Notes under the pieces: generated by a model
Told to the model about the DNA's origin: nothing
The model's database searches: none
What the model saw: the letters and a program-made list of their open reading frames with translations, nothing else
Part shown: piece after piece, positions 6,545 through 24,000 of the stretch
How positions within the stretch are numbered: position 1 is the stretch's first letter
Layout: each line of letters opens with the position of its first letter
Assembly (NCBI GenBank): GCA_964605645.1
Contig: CAZSDJ010000007.1
Location: 1-24,000 of the forward strand
Length of the DNA stretch: 24,000 nucleotides
Direction: 5' to 3'
Origin: an uncultured Planctomycetia bacterium
GTDB taxonomy: Bacteria > Omnitrophota > Gorgyraeia > Duberdicusellales > 4484-171
Program-made: the position numbers and the translations under genes

Positions 6545-6573
6545 TTGACTTTTTAACTGGAGCAGGTTAAACT
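6545..6573 (+). promoter_or_regulatory. sigma70-like promoter candidate for the PPIase-cpaB-secretin-ATPase operon
   Basis: TTGACT (6545-6550), a 17-nt spacer, then TAAACT (6568-6573). AGGGAGG (6596-6602) sits 5 nt before the ATG at 6608. Located in a 127-bp divergent intergenic region. Confidence 0.4.
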
Positions 6574-6607
6574 ATAAGAAAGTTTTAAATATAAAAGGGA
6601 GGCAAAG

Positions 6608-7504
6608 ATGCGCAAGTATCAAACTTTGGTTTTAATTTTAGCTTTATTTTTAGTTGCCGGTTGTGATAAGATCATGCCGGTAACTTCCGCCCCGGAAAAA
6701 GACCAAGAACAAAAAGTGAGTACTACAATCAGAGGGCCATTGCTAGCTAAAGTTAACGGCTGGGCGATGGGGTTGGATGATTTTAGGCAACGTCTCGATG
6801 CTTTAAAAGCAATGATTCCGGAAGATCAACGCGGGCAAGAATTGGGCGTCGAAGATAAGAAAAATATTCTGCAAGAATTAGTGAATGTTCAAATTTTAGG
6901 AAAAGTTGCTAAAGAAAAAGGTTTAAATAAAGACAAAGATGTCCAAGAAGCTGTTGAAAATTTTAAAAATTCTTTGTTAGTGCAGAAATTAAGAGAAAAT
7001 ATTACAAAAGATGTAGTGGTGACTGATGCCGAAATAGAAAACTTTTATAATACCAACAAACTTGCTTTTCAAAAACCGGAAGAAAGAAGGGTCAGAGAAA
7101 TAGTAGCATCTTCTGAATCACAGGCAAAAAATATTTTAATCAGATTGTTACAGGGCGAAAATTTTTCTGTGTTAGCTAGAACTAATTCTATTTCCGAATC
7201 GGCATCACAAGGAGGGGATTTAGGTTATATCACTCCTCAGGCAGAGGAAAGATTTCAAAAATTTTGGGAAGCCGCTTTTACCACTGACAAAGGAGATACC
7301 TCCAATTATTTTAAAGGGCCGGAAGGTTATTATATAGTGAAAGTAGAGGATATCCGCGGCGGCGAAGCCCAGCCGTTAAGTGAAGTAAGAGATCAAATCA
7401 GCCAATACTTAAAGGCCCAGAAAGTGCAAACAAAAATTGAAGATTTAATTTACGAAGCAAAACAAAGGCTGAAAGTTACAATTAATGATTATTTGATAGA
7501 ATAA
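6608..7504 (+). CDS. SurA/PrsA-like parvulin-type peptidyl-prolyl isomerase lipoprotein
   Basis: 298 aa with lipobox LVAG|C. SurA-N-like helical region followed by a parvulin block (RVREIVASSESQAKNILIRLLQGENFSVLARTNSISESASQGGDLGYITP…GYYIVKVEDIR). Confidence 0.8.
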   Translation: MRKYQTLVLILALFLVAGCDKIMPVTSAPEKDQEQKVSTTIRGPLLAKVNGWAMGLDDFRQRLDALKAMIPEDQRGQELGVEDKKNILQELVNVQILGKVAKEKGLNKDKDVQEAVENFKNSLLVQKLRENITKDVVVTDAEIENFYNTNKLAFQKPEERRVREIVASSESQAKNILIRLLQGENFSVLARTNSISESASQGGDLGYITPQAEERFQKFWEAAFTTDKGDTSNYFKGPEGYYIVKVEDIRGGEAQPLSEVRDQISQYLKAQKVQTKIEDLIYEAKQRLKVTINDYLIE

Positions 7505-8289
7505 TGGATAAAAAAAAGTTAATAAATTTAGGGATTGGAGTAGTGCTGGCAATAATTGCGATTGTGATTATTAACGCCCGCCTTCAAGAAAGAGAAAATA
7601 TAATTCAGCGCCTTATTCAAGAAGGCAATGTGGCTCAAGTATTGGTGGCATCGCGTGATATCGAAAAAGGTGAAATGATCAGAGAGAATGTGTTGGGTTT
7701 TGTAAAAATTCGTTCAGAAAACCTTAAAAACAATGCCTTGCAATCGCCGGAGTCAGCAGTGGGGAAAATTGCCAGAGTCGATATTTTACGGAAGCAGGAA
7801 ATTTTATCAACTATGTTAGAACTTCCGGAAGGATCGCAAACACTTTCTCAAAAAACGCCTTCCGGGAAAAAAGCCTATACTATCTCTATTGATCAAATTT
7901 CAGCCGTGGGGGGGAATATCCGGCCGGGGAACAAAGTTGATGTGGTAAGCATAATGCAGCTTCCCCAAAATCAGGGCCAAACAGTTATGACTCTGTTTGA
8001 GGCGGCAAGAGTGCTTCAAATGGGCCAAGGCGGCAAGAACTTAGACAGTATTACTTTAGCCTTGACCAGCGAAGAAATAAAAGTTCTTACCTTTGCGCTG
8101 CAAAATGGACAAATCAAACTTGTACTTAGATCGCCTTTGGATGAACCGGAAGGAACAGCTTTTCAACCTTTTACCTATCAAACATTTATGCAAAAGATTT
8201 ATAATGCTATGGGAGTTAGCCCTCAAAGAGGGCCTGTTGAGCAAAAACCGGATGTTGAAATTTATCGCGGCGGGAGTTCAGGAGAGTAA
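7504..8289 (+). CDS. cpaB: Flp/Tad pilus assembly protein CpaB/RcpC (SAF domain + RcpC domain)
   Basis: 261 aa. N-terminal TM anchor, then a SAF-like segment (VLVASRDIEKGEMIRENVL…VGKIARVDILRKQEI) and a C-terminal CpaB-like region. The start overlaps the upstream stop by 1 nt (TAATG). Confidence 0.8.
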   Translation: MDKKKLINLGIGVVLAIIAIVIINARLQERENIIQRLIQEGNVAQVLVASRDIEKGEMIRENVLGFVKIRSENLKNNALQSPESAVGKIARVDILRKQEILSTMLELPEGSQTLSQKTPSGKKAYTISIDQISAVGGNIRPGNKVDVVSIMQLPQNQGQTVMTLFEAARVLQMGQGGKNLDSITLALTSEEIKVLTFALQNGQIKLVLRSPLDEPEGTAFQPFTYQTFMQKIYNAMGVSPQRGPVEQKPDVEIYRGGSSGE

Positions 8290-9887
8290 TGAAATTACAA
8301 AGATTGTTTTTAATTTTAATTTTAATATTTACATTTAGTTTAACTATCTTTTCTTCATCTGTTTTTAGCCGAGATGATTATTATCAAGCATTAATGTTTG
8401 AAGAAGGGGCAGGAGAAGGCTTAGATATTGTGGTTGGCGATATTCAAGTTATTAAGGTAGAGGGAATAAAAAGGGTATCAATTCGTGATCCGAATATTGC
8501 TAATATTCAAAAAGCAGAAGCAGGTGAAATTATAATTGCCGGAAAATCGCAAGGATCAACGGTGCTTTCGGTATGGACGCAAAGCGGTAAACAACAATTT
8601 CAAATCAATGTAATTTCTGAAGATTTACCGGCATTGAAGAAAAAACTTGAAGAAATCATTCACCAAAAGTTAGGGATAACAGAGGTAACTTTGCGCGAAA
8701 ATAAATCGACTGGAAAAATTATGCTGTTGGGCAATATCACCCAAAACCAACGAAATAAAATTGAGCAAGTCATTGCTCCTTTTGCGAATAAGATTGAAGA
8801 TTTATTAATTACTAAAAAAGAACAGGAAATGGTAGAAATTGACGTTCAAATTTTAGAACTGAATAGAACTGATGCAAAAAATTTAGGCGTAGATTGGATG
8901 GATAGTATCGATATTACCGAAGCAGCTCCGGCAGCTTCAAGAAGTTGGAAATCGTTATGGCAGACAGGTACTTGGTCGCGGGGTAATTTAAATGCTACTT
9001 TAAATTTATTAATTAAAGAAGATAAAGGCAGAGTTTTATCAAGGCCAAAATTACTTTGTTTAAATGGTGAAGAAGCCGAGCTTTTGGTAGGTGGAGAAGT
9101 TCCCGTTTTAACAGAGGCGACAATCGGTGCAGGGAGCGGAACAAGTTCGGCTTCGATTGAATACAAAGAATACGGGATAAAACTTTTGATTAAACCTTTT
9201 ATTTTAGAAGAACAAATTTATCTCTCAATTACAGCCGAGGTGAGTGATGTAACTTCTGTAAACGCACTCACTGTTCAAGGCACGACTACACCTGCCTTTA
9301 CTGTAAGAAGAGCCCAAACGGTAGTTAATGTTGAATCAGGTGATACTGTATTTTTAGGAGGCCTTATCGACAGTGATGATTCAGACATTATTGAGAAATT
9401 GCCCGGATTTTCTCAAATTCCGATTTTAGGGGCACTTTTTCGTTCCAAGGATTTTACTAGTGAAAAGACTGAGCTTTTTATTACTTTGACTCCTAAAATT
9501 ATTAATTTAAGGAAAAAAGCAACAGCTTTGAAAACTGACAGTAAGTTTGAAGCTAAGCCGGAAGAGAGCCTTTTATACCAAAAATCTTCAATCCCTTTTG
9601 ATTTGCAAGGTTATGTACTGAGAGTTCAAAAAATAATATCAAATAATATAACTTATCCGCGAGAATTGTCAGGGACCGGTTGGAAAGGCAGGGTTGTTTT
9701 GTATTTAGAAGTTAATCAATATGGCGAGCTTTTAGATGTAAAGATAAAGAAGTCTTCCGGTTATAAAATATTTGACAAAGATGCTCTAGATTTGGTGAAA
9801 AAACTCAACTTCCATCCTTTTCCTTCTGAATTTGAAGAAGAAGAAATTAATATCGAAATTCCGATAGTTTATCGGGAATATAGGTAA
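8289..9887 (+). CDS. cpaC: CpaC/RcpA-type secretin with an added C-terminal TonB_C-like domain
   Basis: 532 aa with a signal peptide. Pilus-N domain (GDIQVIKVEGIKRVSIRDPNIANI…GSTVLSVW). Canonical secretin core (…VLSRPKLLCLNGEEAELLVGGEVPV…IEYKEYGIKLLIKP…EKLPGFSQIPILGALFRSK…ELFITLTPKII). The last ~90 aa (nt ~9606-9884: YPRELSGTGWKGRVVLYLEVNQYGELLDVKIKKSSGYKIFDKDALDLVKKLNFHPFP) read as a TonB C-terminal domain. Confidence 0.8.
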   Translation: MKLQRLFLILILIFTFSLTIFSSSVFSRDDYYQALMFEEGAGEGLDIVVGDIQVIKVEGIKRVSIRDPNIANIQKAEAGEIIIAGKSQGSTVLSVWTQSGKQQFQINVISEDLPALKKKLEEIIHQKLGITEVTLRENKSTGKIMLLGNITQNQRNKIEQVIAPFANKIEDLLITKKEQEMVEIDVQILELNRTDAKNLGVDWMDSIDITEAAPAASRSWKSLWQTGTWSRGNLNATLNLLIKEDKGRVLSRPKLLCLNGEEAELLVGGEVPVLTEATIGAGSGTSSASIEYKEYGIKLLIKPFILEEQIYLSITAEVSDVTSVNALTVQGTTTPAFTVRRAQTVVNVESGDTVFLGGLIDSDDSDIIEKLPGFSQIPILGALFRSKDFTSEKTELFITLTPKIINLRKKATALKTDSKFEAKPEESLLYQKSSIPFDLQGYVLRVQKIISNNITYPRELSGTGWKGRVVLYLEVNQYGELLDVKIKKSSGYKIFDKDALDLVKKLNFHPFPSEFEEEEINIEIPIVYREYR

Positions 9888-9966: not shown

Positions 9967-12135
9967 ATGGATAATTCTAAATTAATTACTTTAATTAGTC
10001 CAAAAGGCGGGGTAGGCAAGACTATTATTTCCCTTAATTTGGCAACCGCTCTTTCTTTAAAGAAGAAAAAAACAATATTGCTTGATCTAGATTTACGGGC
10101 ACCGCAGGGAACTCATAAATTAATGAATATAAAGTGCAAATATTCACTTTATAATTTAGCCGGTTCAATTCAAAAATTTAAAAGTGAAGAGCGCCATCTG
10201 GAAAGTTATATCTCCCGCCATAGCAGCGGTTTATTTTTTGTGCCGGGGATTTTAAGAACAAAAGAAAAGTTTTCTTTAACTCCAGAGGTGATTCGAGATT
10301 TTCTTTCCCTTCTTTCCACAAAATTCGAATATGTAATAATTGATGGTGGTAGTGAGTTAACAGATCAACTAATAACCACTCTGGATAGTTCTAATTTAAT
10401 TGGACTAGTTTTATCACCGGACATTGTCTCAATCTATCAGAATGAGTGGATTATCGATACTTTACAGAGCTTAGGTTATCCGTTGAGCATGGTTAAGACT
10501 ATTCTAAATAGAGCCCAAAGCAAAGGTGGGGTTAGTGTGCAGGAGATAAAAGTATTATTAAATAGTGAAATAATTTCACAAATACCTTCGGAAGGGAAAG
10601 TGGTAGGCTATGCGGTGAACAAGGGCAATCCGGTTGTAATGGATAGTCCCAAAGCTAAAATTAGTGAGGCATTTAACGAATTAGCAGATAAGTTAATCAC
10701 TAAACCAAGTATTTTCATAGCCAGGAAAAATTTACAGGATATCAGGATAAAAACAGTTAAAGAAAAAGAAACTCAAGCAAGTATTTTAGAAAAAAGTTTA
10801 GGTGAAAAAAAAGCACCTCAGAAATTAGCGGAAGAAGAAGATGCTGTAATTCAGCTGAAAAAAAGAACTCAAAGTAGACTTCTTGATGAAATGGACCTAA
10901 AACGACTTCCCCTGGAAAAAATCTTATCGGATAAGCATCAGATGAAATCTTTACGAGATAAAGCAAAAAAGATAGTGACAAATATTATCGCACAAGAAGC
11001 TGGCGGGTTTATTTCATCAGCCGAGGTAAGAGCAAAAATAATCAAAGAAGTCCTAGATGAAGCCTTAGGCCTGGGGCCTTTAGAAGATTTGTTGAATGAC
11101 CCCGAAGTAACAGAAGTTATGGTCAATAATAAAGACCAGGTTTTTATTGAAGAAAAAGGAAAATTAAAACTTACTACCAAGAAATTTATATCTAACAATC
11201 AAGTAAGGATTATAATTGAAAGGGTCCTTGCTCCCCTGGGAAGAAGAATAGATGAATCAGTGCCCTATGTGGATGCTCGGCTGCAAGACGGTTCCCGGGT
11301 GAATGCGATAATTCCGCCGCTGTCGTTAAGTGGGCCAACTATAACTATTCGTAAATTTGCCCACGAAAGGTTTAATATGGAAGATTTAATCAACAGGTTT
11401 GGCAGTTTAACGTCAGATATGGGTAAATTTTTAAAAGCTTCAGTTGAATCGAGGAAAAATATACTGGTGTCCGGTGGAACCGGTTCAGGTAAAACTACCT
11501 TTTTAAATATTTTATCTTCATATTTACCGGGAGATGAGCGAATTGTGACTATCGAAGATTCCGCTGAACTAAAGTTGCACCAAAGGCATTGGATTCGACT
11601 TGAATCACGGCCGCCTAACATCGAAGGCAAAGGGGCGATAACAATTCGCGAATTATTTCGTAATACTTTAAGAATGAGGCCGGATCGGATTGTAGTGGGT
11701 GAATGCCGCGGCCAAGAGGTATTAGATATGCTCCAGGCGATGAATACCGGCCACGACGGCAGCATGACCACCATTCATGCTAACTCACCCCAAGATGTAT
11801 TAATTCGCCTCGATAGTATGATTTTAATGAGCGGTGTGGATTTGCCGTTGCGGGCAATAAGGGAAATGATCGCATCGGCTCTCGATTTAGTAGTACAAAC
11901 TGCGCGGCTTTCCGATGGATCGCGTAAAGTTACTAAGATTACTGAAATTGCCGGAATGACTGATGAAACTCATATCAATTTACAAGATATATTTACTTTT
12001 CGCCAAACCGGCATTGGCAAGAATCAAGAAGTTGTTGGTGATTTCGTGCCATTGGGCAATATTCCTACTTATTATGATGAAATGAAAGCAAGAGGTATAG
12101 AATTACCGCGGGATATGTTTATCCCCGAGGAATAA
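9967..12135 (+). CDS. fusion protein: TadZ/CpaE-like ParA/MinD-type ATPase (N-terminal) + TadA/CpaF type IV filament ATPase (C-terminal)
   Basis: The N-terminus has the deviant Walker A LISPKGGVGKTIISLNLA and the MinD/ParA layout (~250 aa). A K/E-rich linker follows. The CpaF core has Walker A VSGGTGSGKTTFLN, Asp box TIEDSAEL, Walker B RPDRIVVGECRG and His box GHDGSMTTIHA. The ORF track starts at TTG 9958; ATG 9967 is preferred. Confidence 0.85.
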   Translation: MDNSKLITLISPKGGVGKTIISLNLATALSLKKKKTILLDLDLRAPQGTHKLMNIKCKYSLYNLAGSIQKFKSEERHLESYISRHSSGLFFVPGILRTKEKFSLTPEVIRDFLSLLSTKFEYVIIDGGSELTDQLITTLDSSNLIGLVLSPDIVSIYQNEWIIDTLQSLGYPLSMVKTILNRAQSKGGVSVQEIKVLLNSEIISQIPSEGKVVGYAVNKGNPVVMDSPKAKISEAFNELADKLITKPSIFIARKNLQDIRIKTVKEKETQASILEKSLGEKKAPQKLAEEEDAVIQLKKRTQSRLLDEMDLKRLPLEKILSDKHQMKSLRDKAKKIVTNIIAQEAGGFISSAEVRAKIIKEVLDEALGLGPLEDLLNDPEVTEVMVNNKDQVFIEEKGKLKLTTKKFISNNQVRIIIERVLAPLGRRIDESVPYVDARLQDGSRVNAIIPPLSLSGPTITIRKFAHERFNMEDLINRFGSLTSDMGKFLKASVESRKNILVSGGTGSGKTTFLNILSSYLPGDERIVTIEDSAELKLHQRHWIRLESRPPNIEGKGAITIRELFRNTLRMRPDRIVVGECRGQEVLDMLQAMNTGHDGSMTTIHANSPQDVLIRLDSMILMSGVDLPLRAIREMIASALDLVVQTARLSDGSRKVTKITEIAGMTDETHINLQDIFTFRQTGIGKNQEVVGDFVPLGNIPTYYDEMKARGIELPRDMFIPEE

Positions 12136-13202: not shown

Positions 13203-13212
13203 TCCACTCCAG

Positions 13213-13476: not shown

Positions 13477-13484
13477 TTAGCCAA

Positions 13485-13509
13485 GGGGGCAAACGCCCCC
13501 TATTTTTTT
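13485..13509 (+). terminator. intrinsic terminator candidate
   Basis: GGGGGC-AAAC-GCCCCC stem-loop followed by TATTTTTTT. Confidence 0.6.
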
Positions 13510-13514
13510 ATCTG

Positions 13515-13542
13515 ATTCCCACCTTTTGGGTGGGAATTTTTA
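13515..13542 (+). terminator. second intrinsic terminator candidate
   Basis: ATTCCCACC-TTTTG-GGTGGGAAT stem-loop followed by TTTTT. In tandem with the previous hairpin. Confidence 0.55.
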
Positions 13543-16482: not shown

Positions 16483-17277
16483 TTAGTATTTTTCTAATAA
16501 TGAGGGAATAATAATTTTTGCGTCTTTTACTAAGTTTGCTTCGGATTCATCAAAAAGAAAAGGCTGCAATGAGTCAGCCTGTTTTTTTAGTTCTTTTTTG
16601 GAAAAGCCTTCAATTCTTTTTGTTATTGTTTGAAAAGGCTTTGTCTTGATGCCTAAAGTTTTTAACCTGTTTTTATCAATCGGATATTTATTTGAAAGCA
16701 TAAAAATTATATCATAAATATGCCTGCCTTTATTTTTTTTTCTGAGGGCATCGATTTTGTCAGCAAATAAAATGCTCTTTCTAGTGCAGAGGCAAGGATA
16801 AAACTGGCCAAAACCGGCAGCTACTTCTGTTTCTGTATTTATTCTTTGTTTTAACAAAACAGATTCTATTTTAATAATGATTCCTTCTTTTTTGGAATAT
16901 TTTGATTTTGCTTTATATGTTTGTTCTATTTGAGGGAAAATTAAATTTGCTACGTAAAGATTGCCCCAATGAGAAAACTCTAATTTAGGTTTTAGGCCAA
17001 TTCTTTTTAATTCATTTTTTACTTTTTCGAGAAGCTTTTCAAATTTAAGTTTGGTTATTTTGTTACTGTTAAAATCTAAATCTTCAGAAAATCTTTTTAA
17101 GTTATGAATCAATCTAAGATAAGTTCCTCCGGTAAAATAAAGTTTTTTCCCTTCCGGAATCTTATAAATTTCCTTTAGAATAAGGATTTGTAAATATTCT
17201 CGTAAAATTCCCCGGATTTTTGTAGGCGGCATCTCCCTTGATTTAGCCTGTTCTAACAAAGTTTCATAAGTCAGCAT
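16483..17277 (-). CDS. abiEii: AbiEii/AbiGii-family nucleotidyltransferase toxin (type IV TA / abortive infection)
   Basis: 264 aa. The motif YFTGGTYLRLIHNLKRFSEDLDFN is the DUF1814/AbiEii nucleotidyltransferase signature. The gene overlaps the upstream partner by 14 nt. Confidence 0.8.
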   Translation of the reverse strand: MLTYETLLEQAKSREMPPTKIRGILREYLQILILKEIYKIPEGKKLYFTGGTYLRLIHNLKRFSEDLDFNSNKITKLKFEKLLEKVKNELKRIGLKPKLEFSHWGNLYVANLIFPQIEQTYKAKSKYSKKEGIIIKIESVLLKQRINTETEVAAGFGQFYPCLCTRKSILFADKIDALRKKNKGRHIYDIIFMLSNKYPIDKNRLKTLGIKTKPFQTITKRIEGFSKKELKKQADSLQPFLFDESEANLVKDAKIIIPSLLEKY

Positions 17278-17872
17278 AAAATTCTCCCAGATTAAGATTA
17301 TAAAGTCTAGCGTATTTATTCAATTTTTTCTTATTAAGAGATTTAAGTTTTTTTTCATCAAACCGTTGGTCTTTTAAATTTATTTTTTTATTACGGTAAT
17401 TATTAAAATAGAGATAATCAATAAAGGCTTTTTCCGGCTCGGCAATAAGAATATTAAAATCGCCTTGTTTTTCTAAATAGTATCCCGCGAAAGCTTTTGG
17501 TTGGACTGTTTTATAAATAAAAAGGCCATGTTTATTTTTAAATTTGCGCGTAGGTTTTGTAGAGATAGACGTTACCGCCATAGATACTTCCGGAATAATG
17601 CTGTAATCCGATAAGGCAGTTTCTAGTGAGATATAAGAAGGATTATAAAGTTTGTTAGCAATATAAAAATCAGGGATCATAAAATCAGTTGGGAAGCTTA
17701 ACTCATATAAACCTCGCTTCAGGTGATAAATCCATCCTTTTTCACACCACCGAAACAGCATTTTTTTTAGATTTTCTTTTTTTTCGCTAGGTGAGAAGGA
17801 GAGAAGATCATCATAGGAAAAAATGAAGTATTTATGTTTTTCTAAAGTTTTGTAAAGTTCTTGAAATCTCAT
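17264..17872 (-). CDS. abiEi: AbiEi-family antitoxin / wHTH regulator
   Basis: 202 aa. The N-terminal wHTH-like pattern (…IFSYDDLLSF…LKKMLFRWCEKGWIYHLKRGLYEL) is typical of AbiEi. The gene lies immediately upstream of abiEii. Confidence 0.7.
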   Translation of the reverse strand: MRFQELYKTLEKHKYFIFSYDDLLSFSPSEKKENLKKMLFRWCEKGWIYHLKRGLYELSFPTDFMIPDFYIANKLYNPSYISLETALSDYSIIPEVSMAVTSISTKPTRKFKNKHGLFIYKTVQPKAFAGYYLEKQGDFNILIAEPEKAFIDYLYFNNYRNKKINLKDQRFDEKKLKSLNKKKLNKYARLYNLNLGEFYADL

Positions 17873-17979: not shown

Positions 17980-18261
17980 TTAGCCTTCCTTGCGCAAATG
18001 GACTTGTTGATAAACCTCTTTTCTGTGGCCTATTTTAAAAATAATAATATCTTTTTTATCTATTTTATAAATAACCCGGTAATCACCGACGCGAAGTTTT
18101 CGATATTGCTGTAAGCCTCTTTTTAGGGGTTGCCCGTATTTTGTCGGTTCTGCCAATAATCTTTCTTCAATCGCTTTGCGAATTCTTTTTTGGAGATTTT
18201 TCGGTATTTTGGGCAGATCCTTTCTTTTAATATCGGGATGATAAAGTAAATTATAAGCCAT
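17980..18261 (-). CDS. RelE/ParE-family type II toxin
   Basis: 93 aa. …LPKIPKNLQKRIRKAIEERLLAEPTKYGQPLKRGLQQYRKLRVGDYRVIYKIDKKDIIIFKIGHRKEVY is a typical RelE/StbE pattern. Confidence 0.85.
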   Translation of the reverse strand: MAYNLLYHPDIKRKDLPKIPKNLQKRIRKAIEERLLAEPTKYGQPLKRGLQQYRKLRVGDYRVIYKIDKKDIIIFKIGHRKEVYQQVHLRKEG

Positions 18262-18489
18262 TTATTCCCAAGTTTCTTGATGCGATAGAGATTTTTTAGG
18301 AGAAAAGGTTTTTTCTCTTTCCTGGGCTGATTTTTGCCAATAGCTGTCTGCATGGAGTTCTAACGCCTCTTTGATCAAATCCCTTGCTGCCAAAGAGAGA
18401 GAAACTCCTTCTCGATGTGCCAATTTATCTAAAGCTTTGTATAATCTTGGTTCCAACACAACATTTAAACGCGGGTTTTTTGTCGGCAT
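18262..18489 (-). CDS. ribbon-helix-helix (CopG-like) antitoxin
   Basis: The preferred start is MPTKNPRLNVVLEPRLYKALDKLAHREGVSLSLAARDLIKEALE. On the - strand, GGAGGTG lies 7 nt upstream of this ATG. The stop abuts the toxin start (TAAATG). The longer ORF-track start (18537) lacks an RBS. Confidence 0.8.
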   Translation of the reverse strand: MPTKNPRLNVVLEPRLYKALDKLAHREGVSLSLAARDLIKEALELHADSYWQKSAQEREKTFSPKKSLSHQETWE

Positions 18490-18558
18490 AATTTTCACCT
18501 CCATATCAAATGTATCACATATGATGAACTTTGTCAAGAGCGGCTGGGGAGCATATTT

Positions 18559-19074
18559 TTATTTGGGGTAATATTTATCATTTTTCCAATTGCCAGGATT
18601 ATCGAGGATGTAATGGCGGATGCGGTTTAAATTGAATTCAGTGCGGATTGTGTGTTCATAATAATTGCGTTGCCAAATCGGTTGTTTTGGCATATTCCGT
18701 AATTGGTTGATCTGTTTTGTTGTTGTTGATTTAAACAATTTAACAATTGTCGGTATTGAATTTGGCGTGGAGCAACCAAATTTTTCAACATGATTATGTA
18801 CGGGCACATTGCAATGTGCCCGTACGATATTGATTATTCCATGGATATGATTTGGCATTATAATAAATTCATCCAATTCAATATTTTTACGGATTTTTTC
18901 CGTTTTACACCATTCTTTTTGAATAATTCTCCCATATTTATTTAAAATCATTTTTTCATTATATATATCGCCAAACAGGTATTTACGATTATTTACACAT
19001 ATTGTCACATAATACATACCTGGTTGGCTGTAATTGTAATTTTTTAATCGTATTGATTTGCGGTTTTTTAACAT
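18559..19074 (-). CDS. REP-associated tyrosine transposase (RAYT; IS200/IS605-like Y1 HUH transposase, COG1943-type)
   Basis: Typical N-terminus MLKNRKSIRLKNYNYSQPGMYYVTICV, HUH motif PNHIHGII and catalytic-Tyr block IWQRNYYEHTIRTE…IRHYILDNPGNW. The ORF-track start at 19098 lies inside the flanking palindrome, so the second Met (19074) is preferred. Confidence 0.85.
   Translation of the reverse strand: MLKNRKSIRLKNYNYSQPGMYYVTICVNNRKYLFGDIYNEKMILNKYGRIIQKEWCKTEKIRKNIELDEFIIMPNHIHGIINIVRAHCNVPVHNHVEKFGCSTPNSIPTIVKLFKSTTTKQINQLRNMPKQPIWQRNYYEHTIRTEFNLNRIRHYILDNPGNWKNDKYYPK
18798..18825. repeat. 28-bp perfect palindrome GTACGGGCACATTGCAATGTGCCCGTAC, a REP copy inside the RAYT coding sequence
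   Basis: Read directly. It encodes …VRAHCNVPV… between the HUH motif and the Tyr helix of the RAYT. Confidence 0.8.
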
Positions 19075-19086
19075 GGGTTTTATTTG

Positions 19087-19114
19087 GTAGGGGCACATTG
19101 CAATGTGCCCCTAC
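19087..19114. repeat. 28-bp perfect palindrome GTAGGGGCACATTGCAATGTGCCCCTAC (REP)
   Basis: Read directly. It lies in the divergent intergenic region between the RAYT and the 478-aa ORF. Confidence 0.85.
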
Positions 19115-19202
19115 ATTGTTATTTTTTACCCCCTTTACTTATAGACGAAATAAAACGGGAAATTCTTTCATTTTTTTTGATTTTATTCTATAATAGATAA
19201 TA

Positions 19203-20639
19203 ATGAAGAAAAAGATTGATGCCCGCCTGAAGAAGCTGGTGCTCAACCAACACAGAAATAATCCTAATCTAGGGGTGAGGAAGCTTTCTGACTTGTTAGA
19301 GAAGAAATACGGCGTCTTATTATCGAAAAGCAGTGTTCACTCTGTATTACAAGCTAAAGGAGCTAAGCTTAAAAAGGGGCGAAAAGAAGCTAAATTAGCT
19401 TATGAAAAAAACAGTATTCCGGAAGCAGGATTATTACTATTGCGCTGTATCGATAGTCAGATCGGATTCTTTGAGTATGTTAGCGATGAACTCAATATCT
19501 ACACCCCAAAGTTAAAAAAAGAATTGTTGAAAAAATTTATAATTTTAGCTAGCCTTGCTTTTTTATCAGCTGAAAAACCAAATACAGCAGCTCGTAAAAA
19601 GAGTTATTTACGGTTAGCGGGGTTGTATAGATTTCCCGTTAAAAAGTTCAATTATTTTAAAAAACAGATAGTGCGTTATCAGCCCACCCTGGAACTGAAA
19701 TTACTACATAAAAATTTAACGATTATTTCAGGAATAAAAATTATATTTATAGATAGGTCTTATATTTTTTCTGATGCAAAAATGACAACTCTTTGGGATT
19801 CTGTGCCCAAGATAGAATATTTCTTTTCTTCTCTCCAAGATGCAAAAAATCGCGTTATGAAAATGGCCAAAGAAGGTTTATTTATTTTTGGTTATACTAA
19901 AAGCTGGGGTCATCTATCCACCTTGGTTTTTAAATTAATTAAAGGCCAGAAGCAAAGGATCGCAGCGGTACAATTTTTAGATACAAAAGCGAAGGTGGTT
20001 GAGAAAATTGAGATGAAGAAAAAAACAGATTTTATTTTAGGTTATTATCCGAAAGGAGTTTCGAAAGGGTTAAATTTTCCTAAAAAACAAAAGCGATACA
20101 AGTGCATTCATCTTACTCCTTTAGGCACTTATTATCTTCTTGATTTATCTATAGAATTTATACAAAACATTGATAATGAAAGAATTATATCAAATAACGT
20201 CCTAATAAGAGATAAGAATTATGGCCTGCCTAATTGGGGTTTAATTACTTCTTATCAGAAAATTACCAAAACTCTCTTAAAGGATATAATTAACAGTTAC
20301 TTGTATTTATGGCCGGATAGAGAAGAAAGTTTTTTTGCAGGGACAAAAGCGATTGAACAATCTTTTTTCAACAAAGACGCGCAAAAAAAAGAAATAATGG
20401 GGATATTACCGCATAAATTAAGTTTTTCTCAATTAACGGATTTTAGCCGGGTTGGGCAATTGTTATCGATTTTGTGTAAAGAATTGGTGGAAGGTTTCGA
20501 ACCAAAACGGAAAAGGGGATTTATAGAAAACGGGAATGATTATCTGTTGGTAGTTTTAGATAAAATTGCTGCTAAAACTAAAAAAAGATTAAATAAACAA
20601 GCTTTTTTTGTGGATGGGAAAAGGGTGTTTTTTCGGTGA
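19203..20639 (+). CDS. hypothetical protein with an N-terminal transposase/integrase-style HTH; possibly a very divergent transposase
   Basis: 478 aa. The N-terminus …LVLNQHRNNPNLGVRKLSDLLEKKYGVLLSKSSVHSVLQAKGAKLKKGRK resembles the HTH that precedes catalytic domains in IS481/IS3-type transposases. …AGLLLLRCIDSQIGF…, …IIFIDRSY… and …YLWPDREESFFAGTK… are only weakly DDE-like. No firm catalytic assignment. Confidence 0.35.
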   Translation: MKKKIDARLKKLVLNQHRNNPNLGVRKLSDLLEKKYGVLLSKSSVHSVLQAKGAKLKKGRKEAKLAYEKNSIPEAGLLLLRCIDSQIGFFEYVSDELNIYTPKLKKELLKKFIILASLAFLSAEKPNTAARKKSYLRLAGLYRFPVKKFNYFKKQIVRYQPTLELKLLHKNLTIISGIKIIFIDRSYIFSDAKMTTLWDSVPKIEYFFSSLQDAKNRVMKMAKEGLFIFGYTKSWGHLSTLVFKLIKGQKQRIAAVQFLDTKAKVVEKIEMKKKTDFILGYYPKGVSKGLNFPKKQKRYKCIHLTPLGTYYLLDLSIEFIQNIDNERIISNNVLIRDKNYGLPNWGLITSYQKITKTLLKDIINSYLYLWPDREESFFAGTKAIEQSFFNKDAQKKEIMGILPHKLSFSQLTDFSRVGQLLSILCKELVEGFEPKRKRGFIENGNDYLLVVLDKIAAKTKKRLNKQAFFVDGKRVFFR

Positions 20640-20667: not shown

Positions 20668-20747
20668 CATACAACGATGCGTTGAAAAAAGCGCTTTCAT
20701 AATCTCCCTTTTTGCCTTGTTTTTTGTGGTAATTTTGTCATGTTATA

Positions 20748-20756
20748 TGTTATAAT
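20748..20756 (+). promoter_or_regulatory. extended -10 promoter candidate (TGtTATAAT) for the pilin array
   Basis: TG at 20748-20749 and TATAAT at 20751-20756, in the 190-bp intergenic region upstream of the first pilin gene. There is no convincing -35. Confidence 0.3.
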
Positions 20757-20767
20757 AAGAGTGTTTT

Positions 20768-20835
20768 GGGGGAGGCGCGAAAATGCGTAAAAATGTATTT
20801 TTAACAAGCCGGATGCCTCCCCCGAGGTTATCCGG
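20768..20835 (+). promoter_or_regulatory. structured 5' leader with two mutually exclusive hairpins upstream of the first pilin gene
   Basis: GGGGGAGGC (20768-20776) pairs with GCCTCCCCC (20815-20823). CCGGAT (20809-20814) pairs with ATCCGG (20830-20835), followed by TTTTG. The two stems are adjacent and appear sterically incompatible. Confidence 0.3.
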
Positions 20836-20857
20836 TTTTGTAATTATGGAGACAAAA

Positions 20858-21154
20858 ATGAAAAAAGCACAGTCAATAGTCGAATACGCAATAGCATTTG
20901 TGGTGGTGGTCAGCGGCATAATTGCTATCGGTTTTATTGCTGATGCAAGAGGAGTTTTCCAAAATCATTTTGATGAAGTAATGCAGGAAATGAGCATGAA
21001 CAATCAACCTGTTGCTGTTGTTTTGAATTCGGATAATAGTTCTGAAAAAGATGATTCTAAAACAGCTGCTTCTGAAGAGAACAATTCCGAAGAAGATGAT
21101 TCTACTGGTGTTAAAGCTGGAGGAATAAGTGCTTTTGGTGTTTGGTGGAAGTAG
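20858..21154 (+). CDS. pilin-like protein P1 (class III signal, Flp/TadE-like N-terminus, acidic S/D/E-rich tail)
   Basis: GGAG lies 6 nt upstream of ATG 20858. Begins MKKA|QSIVEYAIAFVVVVSGIIAIGF…. The ORF-track start at 20783 would add a 25-aa leader and sits inside the leader hairpin. Confidence 0.65.
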   Translation: MKKAQSIVEYAIAFVVVVSGIIAIGFIADARGVFQNHFDEVMQEMSMNNQPVAVVLNSDNSSEKDDSKTAASEENNSEEDDSTGVKAGGISAFGVWWK

Positions 21155-21178
21155 TTTTGGTTTTTAATTTTAAAAATA

Positions 21179-21367
21179 ATGAAACGAAACAAAAGTAAAG
21201 TTATGATTAGAAAATTACAAAAAAGTAAAGCACAGTCGATTTTAGAGTATTCATTGTTGATAATGGTGATAGCTGCAGCCTTGATGGCGATGCAGAAGTA
21301 TATACGCCGAGCGATGAACGCACGATTAAAACAAGTACAGGAAGAATTAGATGAATCTTCACGATAA
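21179..21367 (+). CDS. pilin-like protein P2 (short, Flp-sized)
   Basis: …KLQKSKA|QSILEYSLLIMVIAAALMAMQKYIRRAMNARLKQ…. 62 aa, or 54 aa if it starts at ATG 21203. No strong SD at either start. Confidence 0.6.
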   Translation: MKRNKSKVMIRKLQKSKAQSILEYSLLIMVIAAALMAMQKYIRRAMNARLKQVQEELDESSR

Positions 21368-21383
21368 CTTAAGGAGGTGGGAG

Positions 21384-21575
21384 ATGTTAAGGAAGGGGCA
21401 AAGTATTTTGGAATACATGATTATTTTAGCGGTAATAATTGCTGCGGTGGTTGTTGGCGCTAAATATATGCAGAAGAGCACCGACCAAGGACTGCAAGAT
21501 GCAACTGGTGCTATGGAAAGTGCAACCGGTAAGTTCAAGAGCCAAGTTGGCGGCGGTCTCGGTGACGGAAATTAA
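21384..21575 (+). CDS. pilin-like protein P3 (short, Flp-sized)
   Basis: AGGAGGTG (21372-21379) precedes ATG 21384. Begins MLRKG|QSILEYMIILAVIIAAVVVGAKYMQK…. The ORF-track start at 21351 overlaps P2 and lacks an RBS. Confidence 0.75.
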   Translation: MLRKGQSILEYMIILAVIIAAVVVGAKYMQKSTDQGLQDATGAMESATGKFKSQVGGGLGDGN

Positions 21576-21598
21576 AAATAATTTTTAGGAGGTGGCAG

Positions 21599-21985
21599 AT
21601 GTTAATAGTTTTAAGAAAAAAAATAAGAGCCCAGTCAACGGCAGAGTATGCGATCTTTTTTGGCATCATTATTGCTGTGGCAATCGGGATGCAGAAGTAT
21701 CTAAAAAGAGGCATGCAGGGAAAGGTGAAGTCAGTTACCGATGCGGTAGGGCAATCGGCGCAAGGCCAAACTATTGCCGGAACTGGTGTAACCCTACAAG
21801 ATGAAGGCCAATATGTGCCCTATTATCTTGTTGATCAGGATTCAGGAACAACTAGTAGGAGCCAAGAGGTTAGCAAAGAAATGGCTACAACTGACGGCGG
21901 CGCTTTCACCAGAACGGAAACTCAAGATGCGGAAGCTGATTCTACGCAAACAGAAACATATTCTATTGGCGATCAAGGCTATTAA
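21599..21985 (+). CDS. pilin-like protein P4
   Basis: TAGGAGGTGG lies upstream. Begins MLIVLRKKIRA|QSTAEYAIFFGIIIAVAIGMQKYLKRGMQGKVKS…. T/D/E/Q-rich tail. Confidence 0.75.
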   Translation: MLIVLRKKIRAQSTAEYAIFFGIIIAVAIGMQKYLKRGMQGKVKSVTDAVGQSAQGQTIAGTGVTLQDEGQYVPYYLVDQDSGTTSRSQEVSKEMATTDGGAFTRTETQDAEADSTQTETYSIGDQGY

Positions 21986-22021
21986 TCGTTACGGGATAAA
22001 AAGATGAGGAGGAGGTTTTAG

Positions 22022-22330
22022 ATGTTAATGAAAATGCAAAAAGGACAAAGTACCCTAGAATACGCTGCGTTGTTTGCGGTAGTAATCGGGGCGATCATTG
22101 CCGGCCAAGTTTATTTTAAACGCGGTGTGCAAGGCAAACTGAAATCATCGGCAGATCAAATGGGTGAGCAATATTCGTTTGGGGCAACGGGGACTATTAC
22201 TCAAGAGATATCTTCATCGTCTGAAGAAGTTACAGGTGGCGGAACAACTACAACTACTTCCCAACAAACTCAAAGCCAGGAAAGTGATATTAACATTGGC
22301 GGATTTGATGAGGAGTATTGGGGAGAGTAA
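22022..22330 (+). CDS. pilin-like protein P5
   Basis: GAGGAGGAGG lies upstream. Begins MLMKMQKG|QSTLEYAALFAVVIGAIIAGQVYFKRGVQGKLKS…. The tail contains SSSSEEVTGGGTTTTTSQQTQSQES. Confidence 0.75.
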   Translation: MLMKMQKGQSTLEYAALFAVVIGAIIAGQVYFKRGVQGKLKSSADQMGEQYSFGATGTITQEISSSSEEVTGGGTTTTTSQQTQSQESDINIGGFDEEYWGE

Positions 22331-22365
22331 TAATTAAGAAAAGAGCAGAAAAGGAGTGATTATTT

Positions 22366-22728
22366 GTGCGTAAAACTCAGAGTTTATTGAATTATGCGAT
22401 ATTGATGGTGGTGGTTGGCTTAGCTCTTGTTGGGATGAATAAATACTTTAAAAGAGGTGTTCAAGGCAAGGTCGCCGGGCTTTCCGATGCGATGATTGCA
22501 CCTCGCGCAGATCATCTAGCTTATACCGATCAAGACATGGTGCAAAATTCGCAAACAATTCAAGATATGAATGTAAGCATAAATTTAGGAGCAGAAGGGG
22601 CTCAATCCAAACGATCATCTACAACAGCAACTAGTAATACCCATAGAGTTACAGAGGATGAAGATTATGTGGAAGGGGATAGCTCAGGAAATTTAAAGGG
22701 GATAGCTCAGGAGATTTATAAGAAGTAG
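22366..22728 (+). CDS. pilin-like protein P6 (Asn instead of Glu at predicted +5)
   Basis: GTG start with AAGGAG 9 nt upstream. Begins MRKT|QSLLNYAILMVVVGLALVGMNKYFKRGVQGKVAG…. Confidence 0.65.
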   Translation: MRKTQSLLNYAILMVVVGLALVGMNKYFKRGVQGKVAGLSDAMIAPRADHLAYTDQDMVQNSQTIQDMNVSINLGAEGAQSKRSSTTATSNTHRVTEDEDYVEGDSSGNLKGIAQEIYKK

Positions 22729-22758
22729 TTTAAATAAAGTAATTTATTAAAGAAAAAT

Positions 22759-23646
22759 ATGATTCAAAAAATTAAAAAAGCACAAGCATTAACAGAAATG
22801 GCAATATTTGGAACGTTGATATTGCTTTGTTTTTATTACTTATTAACTTATATCCAGAGAATGAATGAAACTCAATATGTGACTCAAGAAGCTTTTCGGA
22901 ATGCACTGGAAAGAGCATCTGACTCAAGTGTAGGCTCGGTAAGCTATGTAAATTTTTCTAATAAACGCCAAGCCAATCTTTATTCTCCGGTTGTAGGAGA
23001 AAGAAGCCAAATAAGCGGCTCTGGACAAATATATTGGGGAACTCCTCCTATTACCTATACTGACGAAGGTGCAGTAGAAACTGGTGAGCTTGCAGCCCAC
23101 GCTTACTATAAATTTAATAAAGATGAGCGTGAATTAAGCGGTATTTTGGCTGGAGAAGAAAGCCCAGCTGTTGAGCTAAGTAGCGGGTCACTTAATGTTT
23201 TGGTAAATAGATTAGGTTCAAGTCTTCAAGGTACAATTAACGCTTACGCTGGCGAAGATGAAACAGTTTTAGGCGATACAAGTATTACCGGCGTTAGCAG
23301 TTCTGTAGGCTCATCCCACCTGGAAGATGTGGTAAATACTACATTACAGCAAAATAATGAAAATAATGAAGATGCAAGTGAGAATGAGATAGAGATAGAT
23401 TCTTATGTAAAGGTAAATGCTTCTACACAAATAAATTATAATAATTCGAATATTACGACTAACCAATCAGGGAAGGTAGAAGATAAAGTGATTTATACTA
23501 TAAATGATAAAGACGGGAATCCGCTTTATAGTATTGATCAAGGCCTTGGCCAAGATGGTTATTATAGTCATACGGATGTGGATAAAGAAGTTGATAATGT
23601 AATGTTACCGGGCGATAGCCCGAGACAATGGATAGCAGTGAAATGA
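22759..23646 (+). CDS. large pilin-like protein P7 (TadE/TadG-like minor pilin or tip/adhesin candidate)
   Basis: 295 aa. Begins MIQKIKKA|QALTEMAIFGTLILLCFYYLL…, followed by a ~260-aa soluble S/G/N/E-rich region. Confidence 0.6.
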   Translation: MIQKIKKAQALTEMAIFGTLILLCFYYLLTYIQRMNETQYVTQEAFRNALERASDSSVGSVSYVNFSNKRQANLYSPVVGERSQISGSGQIYWGTPPITYTDEGAVETGELAAHAYYKFNKDERELSGILAGEESPAVELSSGSLNVLVNRLGSSLQGTINAYAGEDETVLGDTSITGVSSSVGSSHLEDVVNTTLQQNNENNEDASENEIEIDSYVKVNASTQINYNNSNITTNQSGKVEDKVIYTINDKDGNPLYSIDQGLGQDGYYSHTDVDKEVDNVMLPGDSPRQWIAVK

Positions 23647-23876
23647 AATTAATAAAAAAAACAGAAGTTACTTTAGAATTAGCGGTTACTTTTGTGGTTT
23701 TTTGCCTCTTTATTTTAGGCATAATCAATATTTGGGTTTGGGGGCACGCCCAAATTGCAGGAAGAAGCAATAGTTATGAACAGAGTCGAAGAGAAGCTGG
23801 CAATCAAGATCCTGGCCGTCCGGCAGGTTATAATCCTAGTAGTTTAACCGAAGAGGAAGTGATTTTAAGCAATTAA
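23643..23876 (+). CDS. TadE-like pseudopilin P8
   Basis: The ATG at 23643 overlaps the P7 stop (ATGA). Begins MKLIKKT|EVTLELAVTFVVFCLFILGIINIW…. The ORF-track start at 23628 is 5 codons upstream. Confidence 0.6.
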   Translation: MKLIKKTEVTLELAVTFVVFCLFILGIINIWVWGHAQIAGRSNSYEQSRREAGNQDPGRPAGYNPSSLTEEEVILSN

Positions 23877-23884
23877 GTATATCA

Positions 23885-24000
23885 ATGATTTTGTATAAAA
23901 GAAAAAAAGTTCAATCAGCAATAGAATATGCAGCTTTGATTGCTGTAGTAGCGGGTGCATTATTAGCATTTAGTGTTTATTTTAAAAGAGCTACTCAAGG
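23885..24000 (+). CDS. pilin-like protein P9 (5' part only, truncated by the window end)
   Basis: Hand-translated: MILYKRKKV|QSAIEYAALIAVVAGALLAFSVYFKRATQG…. It has the same signal and post-helix YFKR-x-QG motif as P4-P6. It is absent from the ORF track because it runs off the window. Confidence 0.6.
   Translation, partial: MILYKRKKVQSAIEYAALIAVVAGALLAFSVYFKRATQ

Follow-up and report, generated by a model that had tools for sequence, protein, structure and literature searches.

A probable phylum-typical Tad (type IVc) pilus locus in an Omnitrophota genome, with a fused TadZ–TadA ATPase and a TonB_C-tailed secretin

The Omnitrophota are abundant, uncultured and ultra-small bacteria that are thought to live as predators or parasites. 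The canonical loci for tight adherence (Tad, type IVc) pili are flp-tadV-rcpCAB-tadZABCDEFG of A. actinomycetemcomitans and cpa of C. crescentus. Tad complexes, represented by TadBC and RcpA, have been described across the Omnitrophota, where TadB/C group with those of the Bdellovibrionales and where the Tad cluster of V. archaeovorus LiM is complete, expressed and interpreted as predation-related (Seymour 2023, PMC10066038). The giant genes of this phylum are preceded on their 5' side by a conserved locus for secretion, which has over 10 genes, among them a Rotamase_2 peptidylprolyl isomerase (PPIase), rcpC and small class-III-signal genes (West-Roberts 2023, 10.1101/2023.11.21.568195), and according to a 2026 preprint, genes of secretion or pilus systems lie at the flanks of 13 of 14 giant genes. 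Outside the phylum, B. bacteriovorus possesses an 'atypical TadZA hybrid protein', dispersed tad loci with no tadV, a second copy of its rcpA-tadA module as well as a third tadA, and four flp genes, with Flp1 processed by PilD (July 2026 preprint, 10.64898/2026.07.08.737194). The Kil system of M. xanthus is a Tad-like machine that acts on prey contact and whose genes lie in more than one cluster (PMC8460266, PMC12075869); it deploys a single major pilin along with 14 minor ones, which make up interchangeable tips (PMC12075869), and part of its prepilin processing falls to a peptidase encoded elsewhere (PMC8460266). Here, we analyze a locus related to these systems in a stretch of 24,000 nt (hereafter the window) from assembly GCA_964605645.1, contig CAZSDJ010000007.1, positions 1-24,000 of the forward strand, whose source lineage is Omnitrophota in GTDB.

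We conclude, with a probability of roughly 0.78, that the window carries most of the phylum-typical Tad machine of the Omnitrophota, a locus type that has already been described. What is directly observed is which genes it contains, how they are arranged in operons, the families in which they fall and their conservation: a machine operon coding for a PPIase, CpaB, a secretin and two ATPases is followed, beyond an intervening stretch, by an array of pilin-like genes (Table 1). Domain calls were made with Pfam and NCBIfam, structural relatives were sought through sequence and profile searches of the PDB, and folds were examined with AlphaFold2 (AF2) and Foldseek. Conservation was screened by tblastn of 16 Omnitrophota loci and seven secretin-bearing loci from other phyla, which is a small and biased sample. 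CpaB, the secretin core and its TonB_C tail occur in the same order in all 16 of the Omnitrophota loci, and two further annotated loci (L095 and L096; relative loci are designated by L and a number) also carry the machine block collinearly. In annotated neighborhoods of relatives with 86%, 85%, 70% and 62% identity in the fusion ATPase, a PIN_5 gene on the minus strand is followed by an unchanged PPIase-CpaB-secretin::TonB_C-fusion block, and the same arrangement is seen in a relative locus identified by its homolog of the 478-aa protein (p478) that heads the pilin array. Across the phylum, the order and sequence of the components are kept at 35% to 90% identity. Because the components recur collinearly across Omnitrophota loci, the block is not a chance grouping.

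Table 1. Features of the machine operon, the intervening region and the pilin array in the window (↓, predicted cleavage site)
Feature	Coordinates	Strand	Evidence
Putative lipoprotein PPIase, parvulin-type, PrsA/SurA/PpiD-like	6608..7504	+	Rotamase_2 68.7 bits, weak SurA_N_2, NCBIfam peptidylprolyl isomerase models
CpaB/RcpC, periplasmic alignment protein	7504..8289	+	TIGR03177 pilus_cpaB equivalog 147.6 bits (cutoff 71); Pfam RcpC and SAF
Tad-type secretin, RcpA/CpaC-like, with TonB_C tail	8289..9887	+	Pfam T2SS-T3SS_pil_N, Secretin (149 bits), TonB_C (54 bits)
TadZA: MinD/ParA-type TadZ-like domain, linker and CpaF/TadA motor	9967..12135	+	Pfam ParA/MinD-type and T2SSE
CpaF2, short divergent CpaF-family ATPase, 354 aa	12138..13202	+	T2SSE 165 bits
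Two terminator-like hairpins closing the machine operon	13484..13538	+	Consensus matches
648-aa polytopic membrane protein, C-terminal TPR repeats	13563..15509	+	TPR matches alone
309-aa membrane protein	15511..16440	-	No family at E <= 0.01; kept in L091, L093, L095
AbiEii/AbiEi type IV toxin-antitoxin pair	16483..17872	-	AbiEii 61 bits; TAA_AbiEi 50.6 bits, below cutoff
ParE toxin and RHH antitoxin pair, insertion	17980..18537	-	ParE_toxin 49.8 bits; RHH_1/RHH_5
REP-associated tyrosine transposase (RAYT)	18559..19098	-	NF047646 65.4 bits, cutoff 80
REP-like palindrome GTAGGGGCACATTGCAATGTGCCCCTAC	19087..19114	.	Further copies 18797-18826, 20644-20671
p478, N-terminal helix-turn-helix (HTH)	19203..20639	+	Weak HTH_33/32/21 matches
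Flp-like prepilin f1 (MKKA↓QSIVEYAI...)	20858..21154	+	Motif; orthologs in L091, L093
Flp-like prepilin f2, short (...KSKA↓QSILEYSL...)	21179..21367	+	87-90% identical orthologs in L091, L093; distant homologs
Flp-like prepilin f3, short (MLRKG↓QSILEYMI...)	21351..21575	+	75-82% identical orthologs
Flp-like prepilin f4, 128 aa, Y-x-KRG-x-QGK after helix, variable tail	21599..21985	+	Motif, orthologs
Flp-like prepilin f5, 102 aa, Ser/Thr-rich tail	22022..22330	+	102-aa ortholog in L001, L084-86, L089-96
Flp-like paralog f6, degenerate signal MRKT↓QSLLNY (T at -1, N at +5)	22366..22728	+	Motif
TadE-like putative minor pilin E295, 295 aa (...KKA↓QALTEMAIFG...), variable C-terminal domain	22759..23646	+	N-terminal motif; 15 homologs
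TadF-like small putative minor pilin, 82 aa	23628..23876	+	Pfam TadE 17.4 bits (cutoff 22.9); 63-68% identical orthologs in L091, L093
Ninth Flp-like ORF f9 (MILYKRKKV↓QSAIEYAALI...), cut by window end	23885..24000	+	L091 ortholog 56 aa

The PPIase gene is the first of the machine operon, and the N-terminus of its product, MRKYQTLVLILALFLVAGC (…LFLVAGC), reads as a predicted lipobox of a lipoprotein signal. It is tied by a TAATG stop/start overlap at 7504 to cpaB, which is in turn joined to the secretin gene by a second such overlap at 8289. The secretin finds its best PDB matches in 8jvb (140 bits) and the P. aeruginosa RcpA structure 8odn (107 bits), with GspD and PilQ behind. Its TonB_C tail covers residues 453-529 (nt ~9606-9884) and is recovered independently of Pfam, as the TonB C-terminal-domain structures 5lw8 and 6sly match residues 441-529. 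In the tblastn screen, the PPIase gene lies directly 5' of cpaB in 13 of the 16 Omnitrophota loci, these being all that reach far enough upstream, and at none of the seven secretin-bearing loci from other phyla; the TonB_C tail is found in 16/16 of the former versus 0/7 of the latter. Since both features are present throughout the screened Omnitrophota loci, we regard them as real, conserved and, within this sample, Omnitrophota-specific. The PPIase probably assists the secretin or the pilins as a chaperone in the periplasm.

The next gene codes for a single polypeptide in which a MinD/ParA-type domain precedes a CpaF-type motor (TadZA). The ATG at 9967 gives a protein of 722 aa and the upstream TTG at 9958 one of 725 aa. 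The MinD/ParA domain spans residues 8-250; its canonical KGGVGKT motif lies at 13-19 in the 725-aa numbering, and the CpaF Walker A at about residue 505. With Caulobacter CpaF, the ATPase core of TadZA reaches 377 bits, as opposed to 134 with archaeal GspE2 and 126 with FlaI. The TadA-family model TIGR03819 is the top NCBIfam model for both ATPases of the operon (339 bits for TadZA and 262 for the second, CpaF2), with both scores below the conjugation-specific cutoff of 373. In the PDB, the N-terminal domain matches the ParA-family entry 3ea0 best and MinD structures next, and the TadZ structure from E. rectale is not among its matches at E <= 1e-3. This domain has no receiver-like N-terminal extension. 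Its nearest homologs outside the Omnitrophota are stand-alone proteins of 385-550 aa with an extra N-terminal region of 130-280 aa, and their genes lie directly 5' of a separate cpaF and often 3' of cpaB. The place directly 5' of cpaF is the classical position of tadZ. As the stand-alone homologs occupy it, we take the N-terminal domain to be TadZ, and the whole protein to be the ATPase domain of TadZ, minus the receiver-like extension, fused to TadA. One NCBI protein, on a contig of 55.8 kb, is 100% identical to TadZA. More than 100 clusters of full-length TadZA homologs share 56-93% identity, and all those with a named source are from Omnitrophica/Omnitrophota. A separate MinD-CpaF fusion of 770 aa occurs in L016 (JAJRTK010000086.1, 'bacterium isolate Dive96_bin1.51'), with 24% identity in the N-terminal domain and a secretin 5' of the fusion, without the TonB_C tail and without the PPIase; this TadZA fusion may be of independent origin or very distantly related. 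Two loci with the full PPIase-CpaB-secretin::TonB_C-TadZA block, L007 (CAYHZK010000045.1) and L009 (CAYZPQ010000129.1), bear the title 'uncultured Planctomycetales bacterium', and either this label is wrong or the block extends beyond the Omnitrophota. Further, several metagenomic proteins (P0015 of 1156 aa, P0163 of 1605 aa, P0164, P0165 and P0167) contain two to three complete CpaF-type cores per polypeptide without a MinD domain; either natural fusions of tandem motors or read-through in gene calling may account for them.

CpaF2, the second ATPase, starts with an ATG 2 nt past the TadZA stop codon and has its Walker A, Asp box, Walker B and His box all intact. Against the PDB it scores 280 bits with CpaF and 136 with FlaI, and for both ATPases the archaeal FlaI and GspE2 matches reach 125-136 bits, less than half the CpaF score. 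In a neighbor-joining tree of 30 ATPase cores, a distance method with limited sampling, rooted at the midpoint and without an archaeal outgroup, CpaF2 forms its own clade in 100/100 bootstraps and the fusion cores form theirs in 99/100, with a sister grouping of the two in only 2/100. Given these separate, non-sister clades, we read CpaF2 as a divergent paralog of one subclade and not as a fresh tandem duplicate; the tree does not settle its origin. Besides the window, CpaF2 is present in L084-88, L089/90, L091, L095 and L096. It has been lost in L001-3 and L093/94, where a 29-aa remnant and ~450 nt of non-coding DNA are found (L001:12174-12713, L093:1930-2469), is shortened to 212 aa in L004 (12236-12871), and has no counterpart in the distant loci L005-L013. 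Because the rest of the machine stays where CpaF2 is lost or shortened, it is dispensable in at least some lineages. A search of cluster representatives, which come without taxonomy, adds little on its distribution. In the distant loci, a gene for a protein of 114-125 aa occupies the CpaF2 position (L005:13591-13947, L006:12148-12495, L007:7983-8336, L010:12157-12534, L013:12167-12511); it adjoins the TadZA gene in L006, L007, L010 and L013 and lies ~1.4 kb downstream in L005. The L006 protein is a DUF192 member (73.7 bits), and the other four match its N-terminal sequence. As to the hairpins placed at the end of the operon, the total of terminator-like sites in the window is no greater than in shuffled sequence. 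An initial annotation of this DNA, made from the sequence itself, had already singled out the coupling of the PPIase to cpaB and the secretin, the TonB_C domain, the TadZ–TadA fusion and the second CpaF immediately behind it, and all four are borne out.

The same annotation had counted nine or more tandem and heterogeneous pilins with an archaeal-looking signal. Nine ORFs with a pilin-like N-terminus are indeed found, with starts running from 20858 to 23885 (Table 1). The motif [KR][KR](G/A)↓Q-S-x-x-E-Y-A, followed by a hydrophobic helix, is present in seven ORFs of the window and in 79 ORFs from nine loci; part of this motif was fixed beforehand by the regular expression used for the search, and Q occupies +1 in 79/79 cases though seven residues were permitted there. 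Flp prepilins are recognized by cleavage after G or A, by E at +5 and by Y at +6, and the signal, being thus the ordinary Flp motif, does not distinguish these proteins as archaeal-looking. For f2-f6, E295, the 82-aa protein and f9, collinear orthologs of 55-90% identity exist in close relatives and homologs in distant Omnitrophota, which marks the small ORFs as genuine genes. The ortholog of f9 in L091 is the last small gene 5' of tadB. On account of its shortness, f3 is a candidate for the major pilin. E295, for which the AF2 model (pLDDT 81) has an N-terminal helix of 50 residues, a beta-sheet and an extra domain, is a putative minor pilin. Elsewhere in the phylum, a two-gene pilin cassette has undergone recent tandem duplication (L013:15192-17371, L006:16002-17946), and the N-terminal halves of the copies are nearly identical while their C-terminal tails differ, which suggests that the exposed parts of the pilins may diversify fast. 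The C-terminal tails of f5, f4 and f1 in the window (22022-22330, 21599-21985 and 20858-21154) are rich in Ser, Thr, Asp and Glu (e.g., SSSSEEVTGGGTTTTTSQQTQSQ) and could possibly be O-glycosylated.

No T2SSF or Peptidase_A24 gene was detected by Pfam or NCBIfam in the 24-kb window, in line with the reported absence of TadB/TadC and the prepilin peptidase. For TadB/TadC, this probably has to do with where the window ends. In L091, L092, L093, L094 and L095, two adjacent genes for single-T2SSF proteins of 284 aa, the TadB/TadC pair, lie ~100-220 nt past the f9 ortholog, and because the pair follows the array in these five orthologous loci, its absence from the window is most likely an edge effect. 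Next in the relatives comes a gene product of 418-449 aa (in L094, where the contig end cuts it, 136 aa), which in L091 matches the Pfam model Tad at 26.6 bits, above the cutoff of 22.3, and is TadE/G-like. This is followed by a protein of ~300-327 aa and then by a giant ORF of >1,700 to >2,300 aa. L096, on a 762-kb contig, has the entire system on one strand: PPIase-CpaB-secretin::TonB_C-TadZA-CpaF2-p480-six Flp-like-TadE-like-258 aa-TadG-like-285 aa-60 aa-TadB-TadC. No tadV, tadD or rcpB was recognized in the locus. The 336-aa and 337-aa proteins of L090 were considered as divergent TadB/C and rejected, as they are signal-peptide proteins without a T2SSF domain.

Several observations weigh against the assignment to a Tad machine. 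The Pfam model Flp_Fap gives no match at E <= 1 in any of the eight ORFs tested, and the small ORFs have just sub-threshold matches, three pilins to class III signal models and the 82-aa ORF to TadE (for f3, 14.8 bits to Class_IIIsignal, cutoff 23.7, and 19 bits to TIGR04205, cutoff 65). A pilin profile searched against the PDB reaches Caulobacter PilA (8u1k, E = 0.5) and Flp (8u2b, E = 0.8) at non-significant levels, and Foldseek finds no significant match for E295 in the PDB. The tadB/tadC genes are known from the orthologous loci and not from the window genome itself. Neither the window nor the annotated genes of the relative loci, within 10 kb of the query genes, include a Peptidase_A24 or other prepilin peptidase gene. 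All the functional roles that we propose, including those of the PPIase, the TonB_C tail, CpaF2 and p478 and a part in predation, are inferred. Finally, the study that described the locus 5' of giant genes interprets it as type II secretion-like (West-Roberts 2023).

This last interpretation is the alternative that fares best, though we consider it unlikely. It holds that the locus is an exporter akin to the type II secretion system (T2SS), with a short pseudopilus of class-III-signal proteins, in place of an extended pilus, pushing or presenting the giant protein or other effectors through the secretin. In keeping with it, giant ORFs come directly after the locus in L091, L092, L093 and L095 (L091:15825-20726, L092:13269-18170, L093:16195-21086, L095:15581-20561, all running off the loci), which matches the published adjacency of giant Omnitrophota genes to the secretion locus. 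This conserved locus 5' of giant genes has been called T2SS-like (West-Roberts 2023), and secretion or pilus genes flank 13 of the 14 giant genes noted above. The papers on Kil likewise discuss T2SS-like effector delivery by a Tad pilus (PMC8460266, PMC12075869), and many heterogeneous pilins together with an extra ATPase could suit the handling of cargo. Against this, the components are Tad-type, and the T2SS models fall far under their cutoffs (GspE TIGR02533, 46 bits vs 630; GspD TIGR02517, 172 vs 351). The platform is split into TadB and TadC, and the pilins have a Flp-like motif, not G↓FTLIE. Moreover, L087 and L004 have neither a pilin array nor an ORF of >2,000 aa within 9-10 kb downstream of the machine block (L004 does carry an ORF of 1,809 aa, on the opposite strand), and passage through a secretin is improbable for giant proteins that are tens of thousands of residues long. 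The exporter reading overlaps with that of a Tad machine rather than excluding it; between the labels 'T2SS-like' and 'Tad' in the literature, our results favor the latter.

Far less probable is the view of the initial annotation that the locus is an undescribed branch of the type IV filament superfamily, lying between archaeal Epd-like pili and the bacterial Tad systems. The weak matches of three pilins to archaeal class III models with no match to Flp_Fap, the unusual accessory domains (the PPIase and TonB_C), and the position of CpaF2 outside the sampled bacterial TadA sequences in the midpoint-rooted tree could be taken in its favor. However, for both ATPases the score with Caulobacter CpaF is two to three times that with FlaI or GspE2; the bacterial Tad hallmarks, namely the secretin, CpaB and a TadZ homolog, are all present; and the relatives have TadB/TadC and a TadG-like protein in a locus type that has been published. 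Some archaeal flavor is to be expected in any case, since Tad has been derived from an Epd-like archaeal ancestor (Denise 2019). Both ATPases, CpaB and the secretin fall with Tad components, and the locus type had been published before, which goes most of the way toward refuting the initial view on its own terms. The proposed check of gene neighborhoods in relatives returns an architecture conserved across Omnitrophota loci, though not an undescribed one, as there are precedents in the literature: five of the seven listed deviations from the textbook have a published precedent, the exceptions being the TonB_C tail and the toxin-antitoxin/REP insertion, the latter incidental. Two broader judgments do hold up: the machine is of the Tad type but deviates from the textbook tad/cpa locus, and it is unlikely to be a simple adhesion pilus.

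Between the machine and the array (13202 to 20858) lie 7.66 kb, agreeing with the 7.6 kb of toxin-antitoxin, transposase and REP (repetitive extragenic palindrome) material by which the system had been called split. Within this stretch, three genes that the initial annotation did not separate out code for the 648-aa, 309-aa and 478-aa proteins. The 648-aa protein has orthologs of 67-76% identity in L091 and L093 and is absent from L090, L095 and L096, and it is best seen as an accessory gene or cargo of close relatives only; it contains no recognizable enzymatic domain. The 309-aa protein matches TraX, of the F-pilin acetylase family, at E = 0.021, too weakly to interpret. No homolog of the AbiEii/AbiEi pair occurs in any relative locus, pointing to a lineage-specific insertion, while L095 has a ParE pair at the site equivalent to that of ParE/RHH in the window, and orthologs of the RAYT stand at the same place in L091 and L093. 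The REP-like palindrome (GGGGCACATTGCAATGTGCCCC) is present in three copies, one inside the RAYT ORF and two bracketing the 478-aa gene. The site between CpaF2 and p478 varies among relatives: it is empty in L096 (9866-10000), holds two secreted proteins in L090 (13240-15560), and the 309-aa protein, ParE and a bAvd/23S_rRNA_IVP-like gene in L095 (3830-6600); in L091 and L093 it is occupied by the genes of the TPR protein, the 309-aa protein and the RAYT, to which the window (13203-19200) adds two toxin-antitoxin pairs. Since the whole system is contiguous on one strand in L096, we interpret the gap as a local, lineage-specific insertion at a hot spot and not as a functional split.

The 478-aa gene, which had been counted as part of the transposase material, belongs instead to a conserved array-associated family. 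This family comprises 27 homolog clusters and is single-copy, and its few named members are from Omnitrophica. Homologs of 478-628 aa lie between the ATPase gene and the array in L005, L006, L007, L010, L013, L090 and L096 (L005:14017-15579, L006:12684-14210, L010:14082-15527, L013:12587-14473, L007:8746-10479, L096:10001-11443), the distant ones with ~21% identity; they are always directly 5' of the pilin array and occur in Omnitrophota-type loci only. The top five Foldseek matches of the AF2 model (pLDDT 85, pTM 0.74) are all to Tn5 transposase and weak (E = 2e-3, TM = 0.2). We regard p478 as a conserved array-associated DNA-binding protein, possibly derived from a transposase, and at a guess it could serve as a regulator of the array. 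An active DDE transposase was considered and rejected: the Tn5 matches are weak; being single-copy and syntenic, the family is not an active insertion sequence, and in our reading of the model, made without a structural alignment, no acidic residue stands at the position expected after beta4. The 476-aa protein of L090, which as a paralog of p478 would have hinted at such an element, shows no similarity to it.

Least credible of all is a decaying remnant, broken by mobile elements and no longer assembled into a machine, for although toxin-antitoxin genes, the RAYT and copies of the REP separate the machine from the pilins, CpaF2 is lost or shortened in some relatives and the f6 cleavage motif is degenerate, all component ORFs are intact, both ATPases keep their catalytic motifs, order and sequence are conserved across the phylum, the insertions fall between operons and not within genes, and V. 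archaeovorus expresses its Tad complex (PMC10066038).

On the preferred reading of a Tad machine, its working might be pictured as follows. Prepilins would be cleaved after G or A by a peptidase whose gene lies elsewhere, probably a shared PilD of the kind that Bdellovibrio uses. TadZA would drive the TadB/C platform to build a short Flp filament primed by a tip of TadE/F/G, which would exit via the secretin as aligned by CpaB. Through its TonB_C tail, the secretin may be held at peptidoglycan or at an outer-membrane partner with a TonB-box-like strand, and the PPIase could fold or pilot the secretin or the pilins, standing in for the absent TadD/RcpB. CpaF2 would supply a second motor activity, perhaps for retraction or for the assembly of alternative pilins. 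The filament could thereby serve contact with a host or prey, possibly deploying the neighboring giant protein. A bolder and rather doubtful version is that of a repurposed two-motor Tad system, in which TadZA and CpaF2 would split the work (for example, extension versus retraction, or pilus assembly versus cargo handling), the PPIase and TonB_C would replace the pilotin and anchor, and the large Flp/TadE/F/G repertoire, under the control of p478, would provide interchangeable tips to deploy or dock the giant protein onto prey. If true, this would be a functionally new class of Tad-based predation or secretion device in nanobacteria.

The window presents no new kind of system; it offers increments and leads for modeling or imaging the machine. 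The Tad locus is the best candidate for the host-contact apparatus of the Omnitrophota, and the TadZ–TadA fusion, called atypical in Bdellovibrio, proves to be present throughout the sampled Omnitrophota loci. Our analysis also flags three conserved parts, the TonB_C tail, the second and divergent CpaF adjacent to TadZA, and the 478-aa HTH protein, of which we found no mention in the literature compared here, which is not proof of their novelty. The site between the motor and pilin genes is shown to be a hot spot for toxin-antitoxin and REP/RAYT cargo.

Upstream of the Tad locus lie housekeeping-type genes, coding for a CsgG-like lipoprotein, a PNPOx-like protein, two CNNM/CorC transporters, an M48 peptidase, two YbjQ proteins and a PIN_5 ribonuclease. 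The CsgG-family lipoprotein (61-972, plus strand) has a C-terminal FlgT_C domain and is kept in L001 too; it is unrelated to the Tad locus. The G+C content of the window is mostly ~31-42%, with one 1-kb block down to 25%, and Rfam gives no match in the window.

Set against the described systems, the locus agrees with the canonical Tad/Cpa loci in its CpaF-clade ATPase, CpaB/RcpC, RcpA-type secretin and G/A↓xxxxEY motif, and in the TadB/TadC and TadE/F/G-like proteins of its relatives. It departs from them in the fusion to TadA of a TadZ without the receiver-like N-terminal domain, the extra ATPase, the PPIase and the TonB_C tail. Omnitrophota loci code for 6-13 Flp paralogs, mostly of ~100-130 aa, versus one to three in canonical loci, whose Flp prepilins are roughly 60-75 aa long. 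With archaeal Epd/class III pili, it shares a short basic leader, Q at +1 and E at +5, but its ATPases are nearer to CpaF, a secretin, CpaB and a TadZ homolog are present, and the class III models stay below their cutoffs. Unlike the T2SS, the platform in its relatives is split into TadB and TadC, and the pilin motif is QSxxEY, not G↓FTLIE. The Kil system is distinguished by FHA-domain accessory proteins and a type III secretion system without a needle as partner, and no TadZ fusion, PPIase or TonB_C has been reported for it, whereas the pilin genes of the Omnitrophota form one tandem array. Also close is the Bdellovibrio system, which like the window has a ParA/MinD-like TadZ fused by a linker to TadA, extra tadA genes, several flp genes and no tadV in its loci, and for which a predatory role is likewise inferred; its polar localization depends on RomR. 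The likeness of the two fusions is one of described architecture; the Bdellovibrio preprint mentions neither a TonB_C tail on the secretin nor a PPIase, and its extra tadA genes lie in separate loci (rcpA2-tadA2 and tadA3), unlike CpaF2 at 2 nt past TadZA. The closest counterpart is the giant-gene locus of the Omnitrophota themselves (West-Roberts, Seymour; V. archaeovorus CP019384.1, 12382-29832). The window differs from it in the toxin-antitoxin, RAYT/REP and TPR-protein insertions between machine and pilins, and term searches of West-Roberts 2023 and Seymour 2023 turned up neither the TonB_C tail nor the TadZ-CpaF fusion, CpaF2 or p478. The published locus comes from the same phylum and has the same gene set: the Rotamase_2 PPIase and rcpC/cpaB are joined by a secretin of gspD type, ATPases of gspE type, platform genes of gspF type and numerous small genes with class III signal peptides, with a giant ORF downstream in the close relatives of the window.

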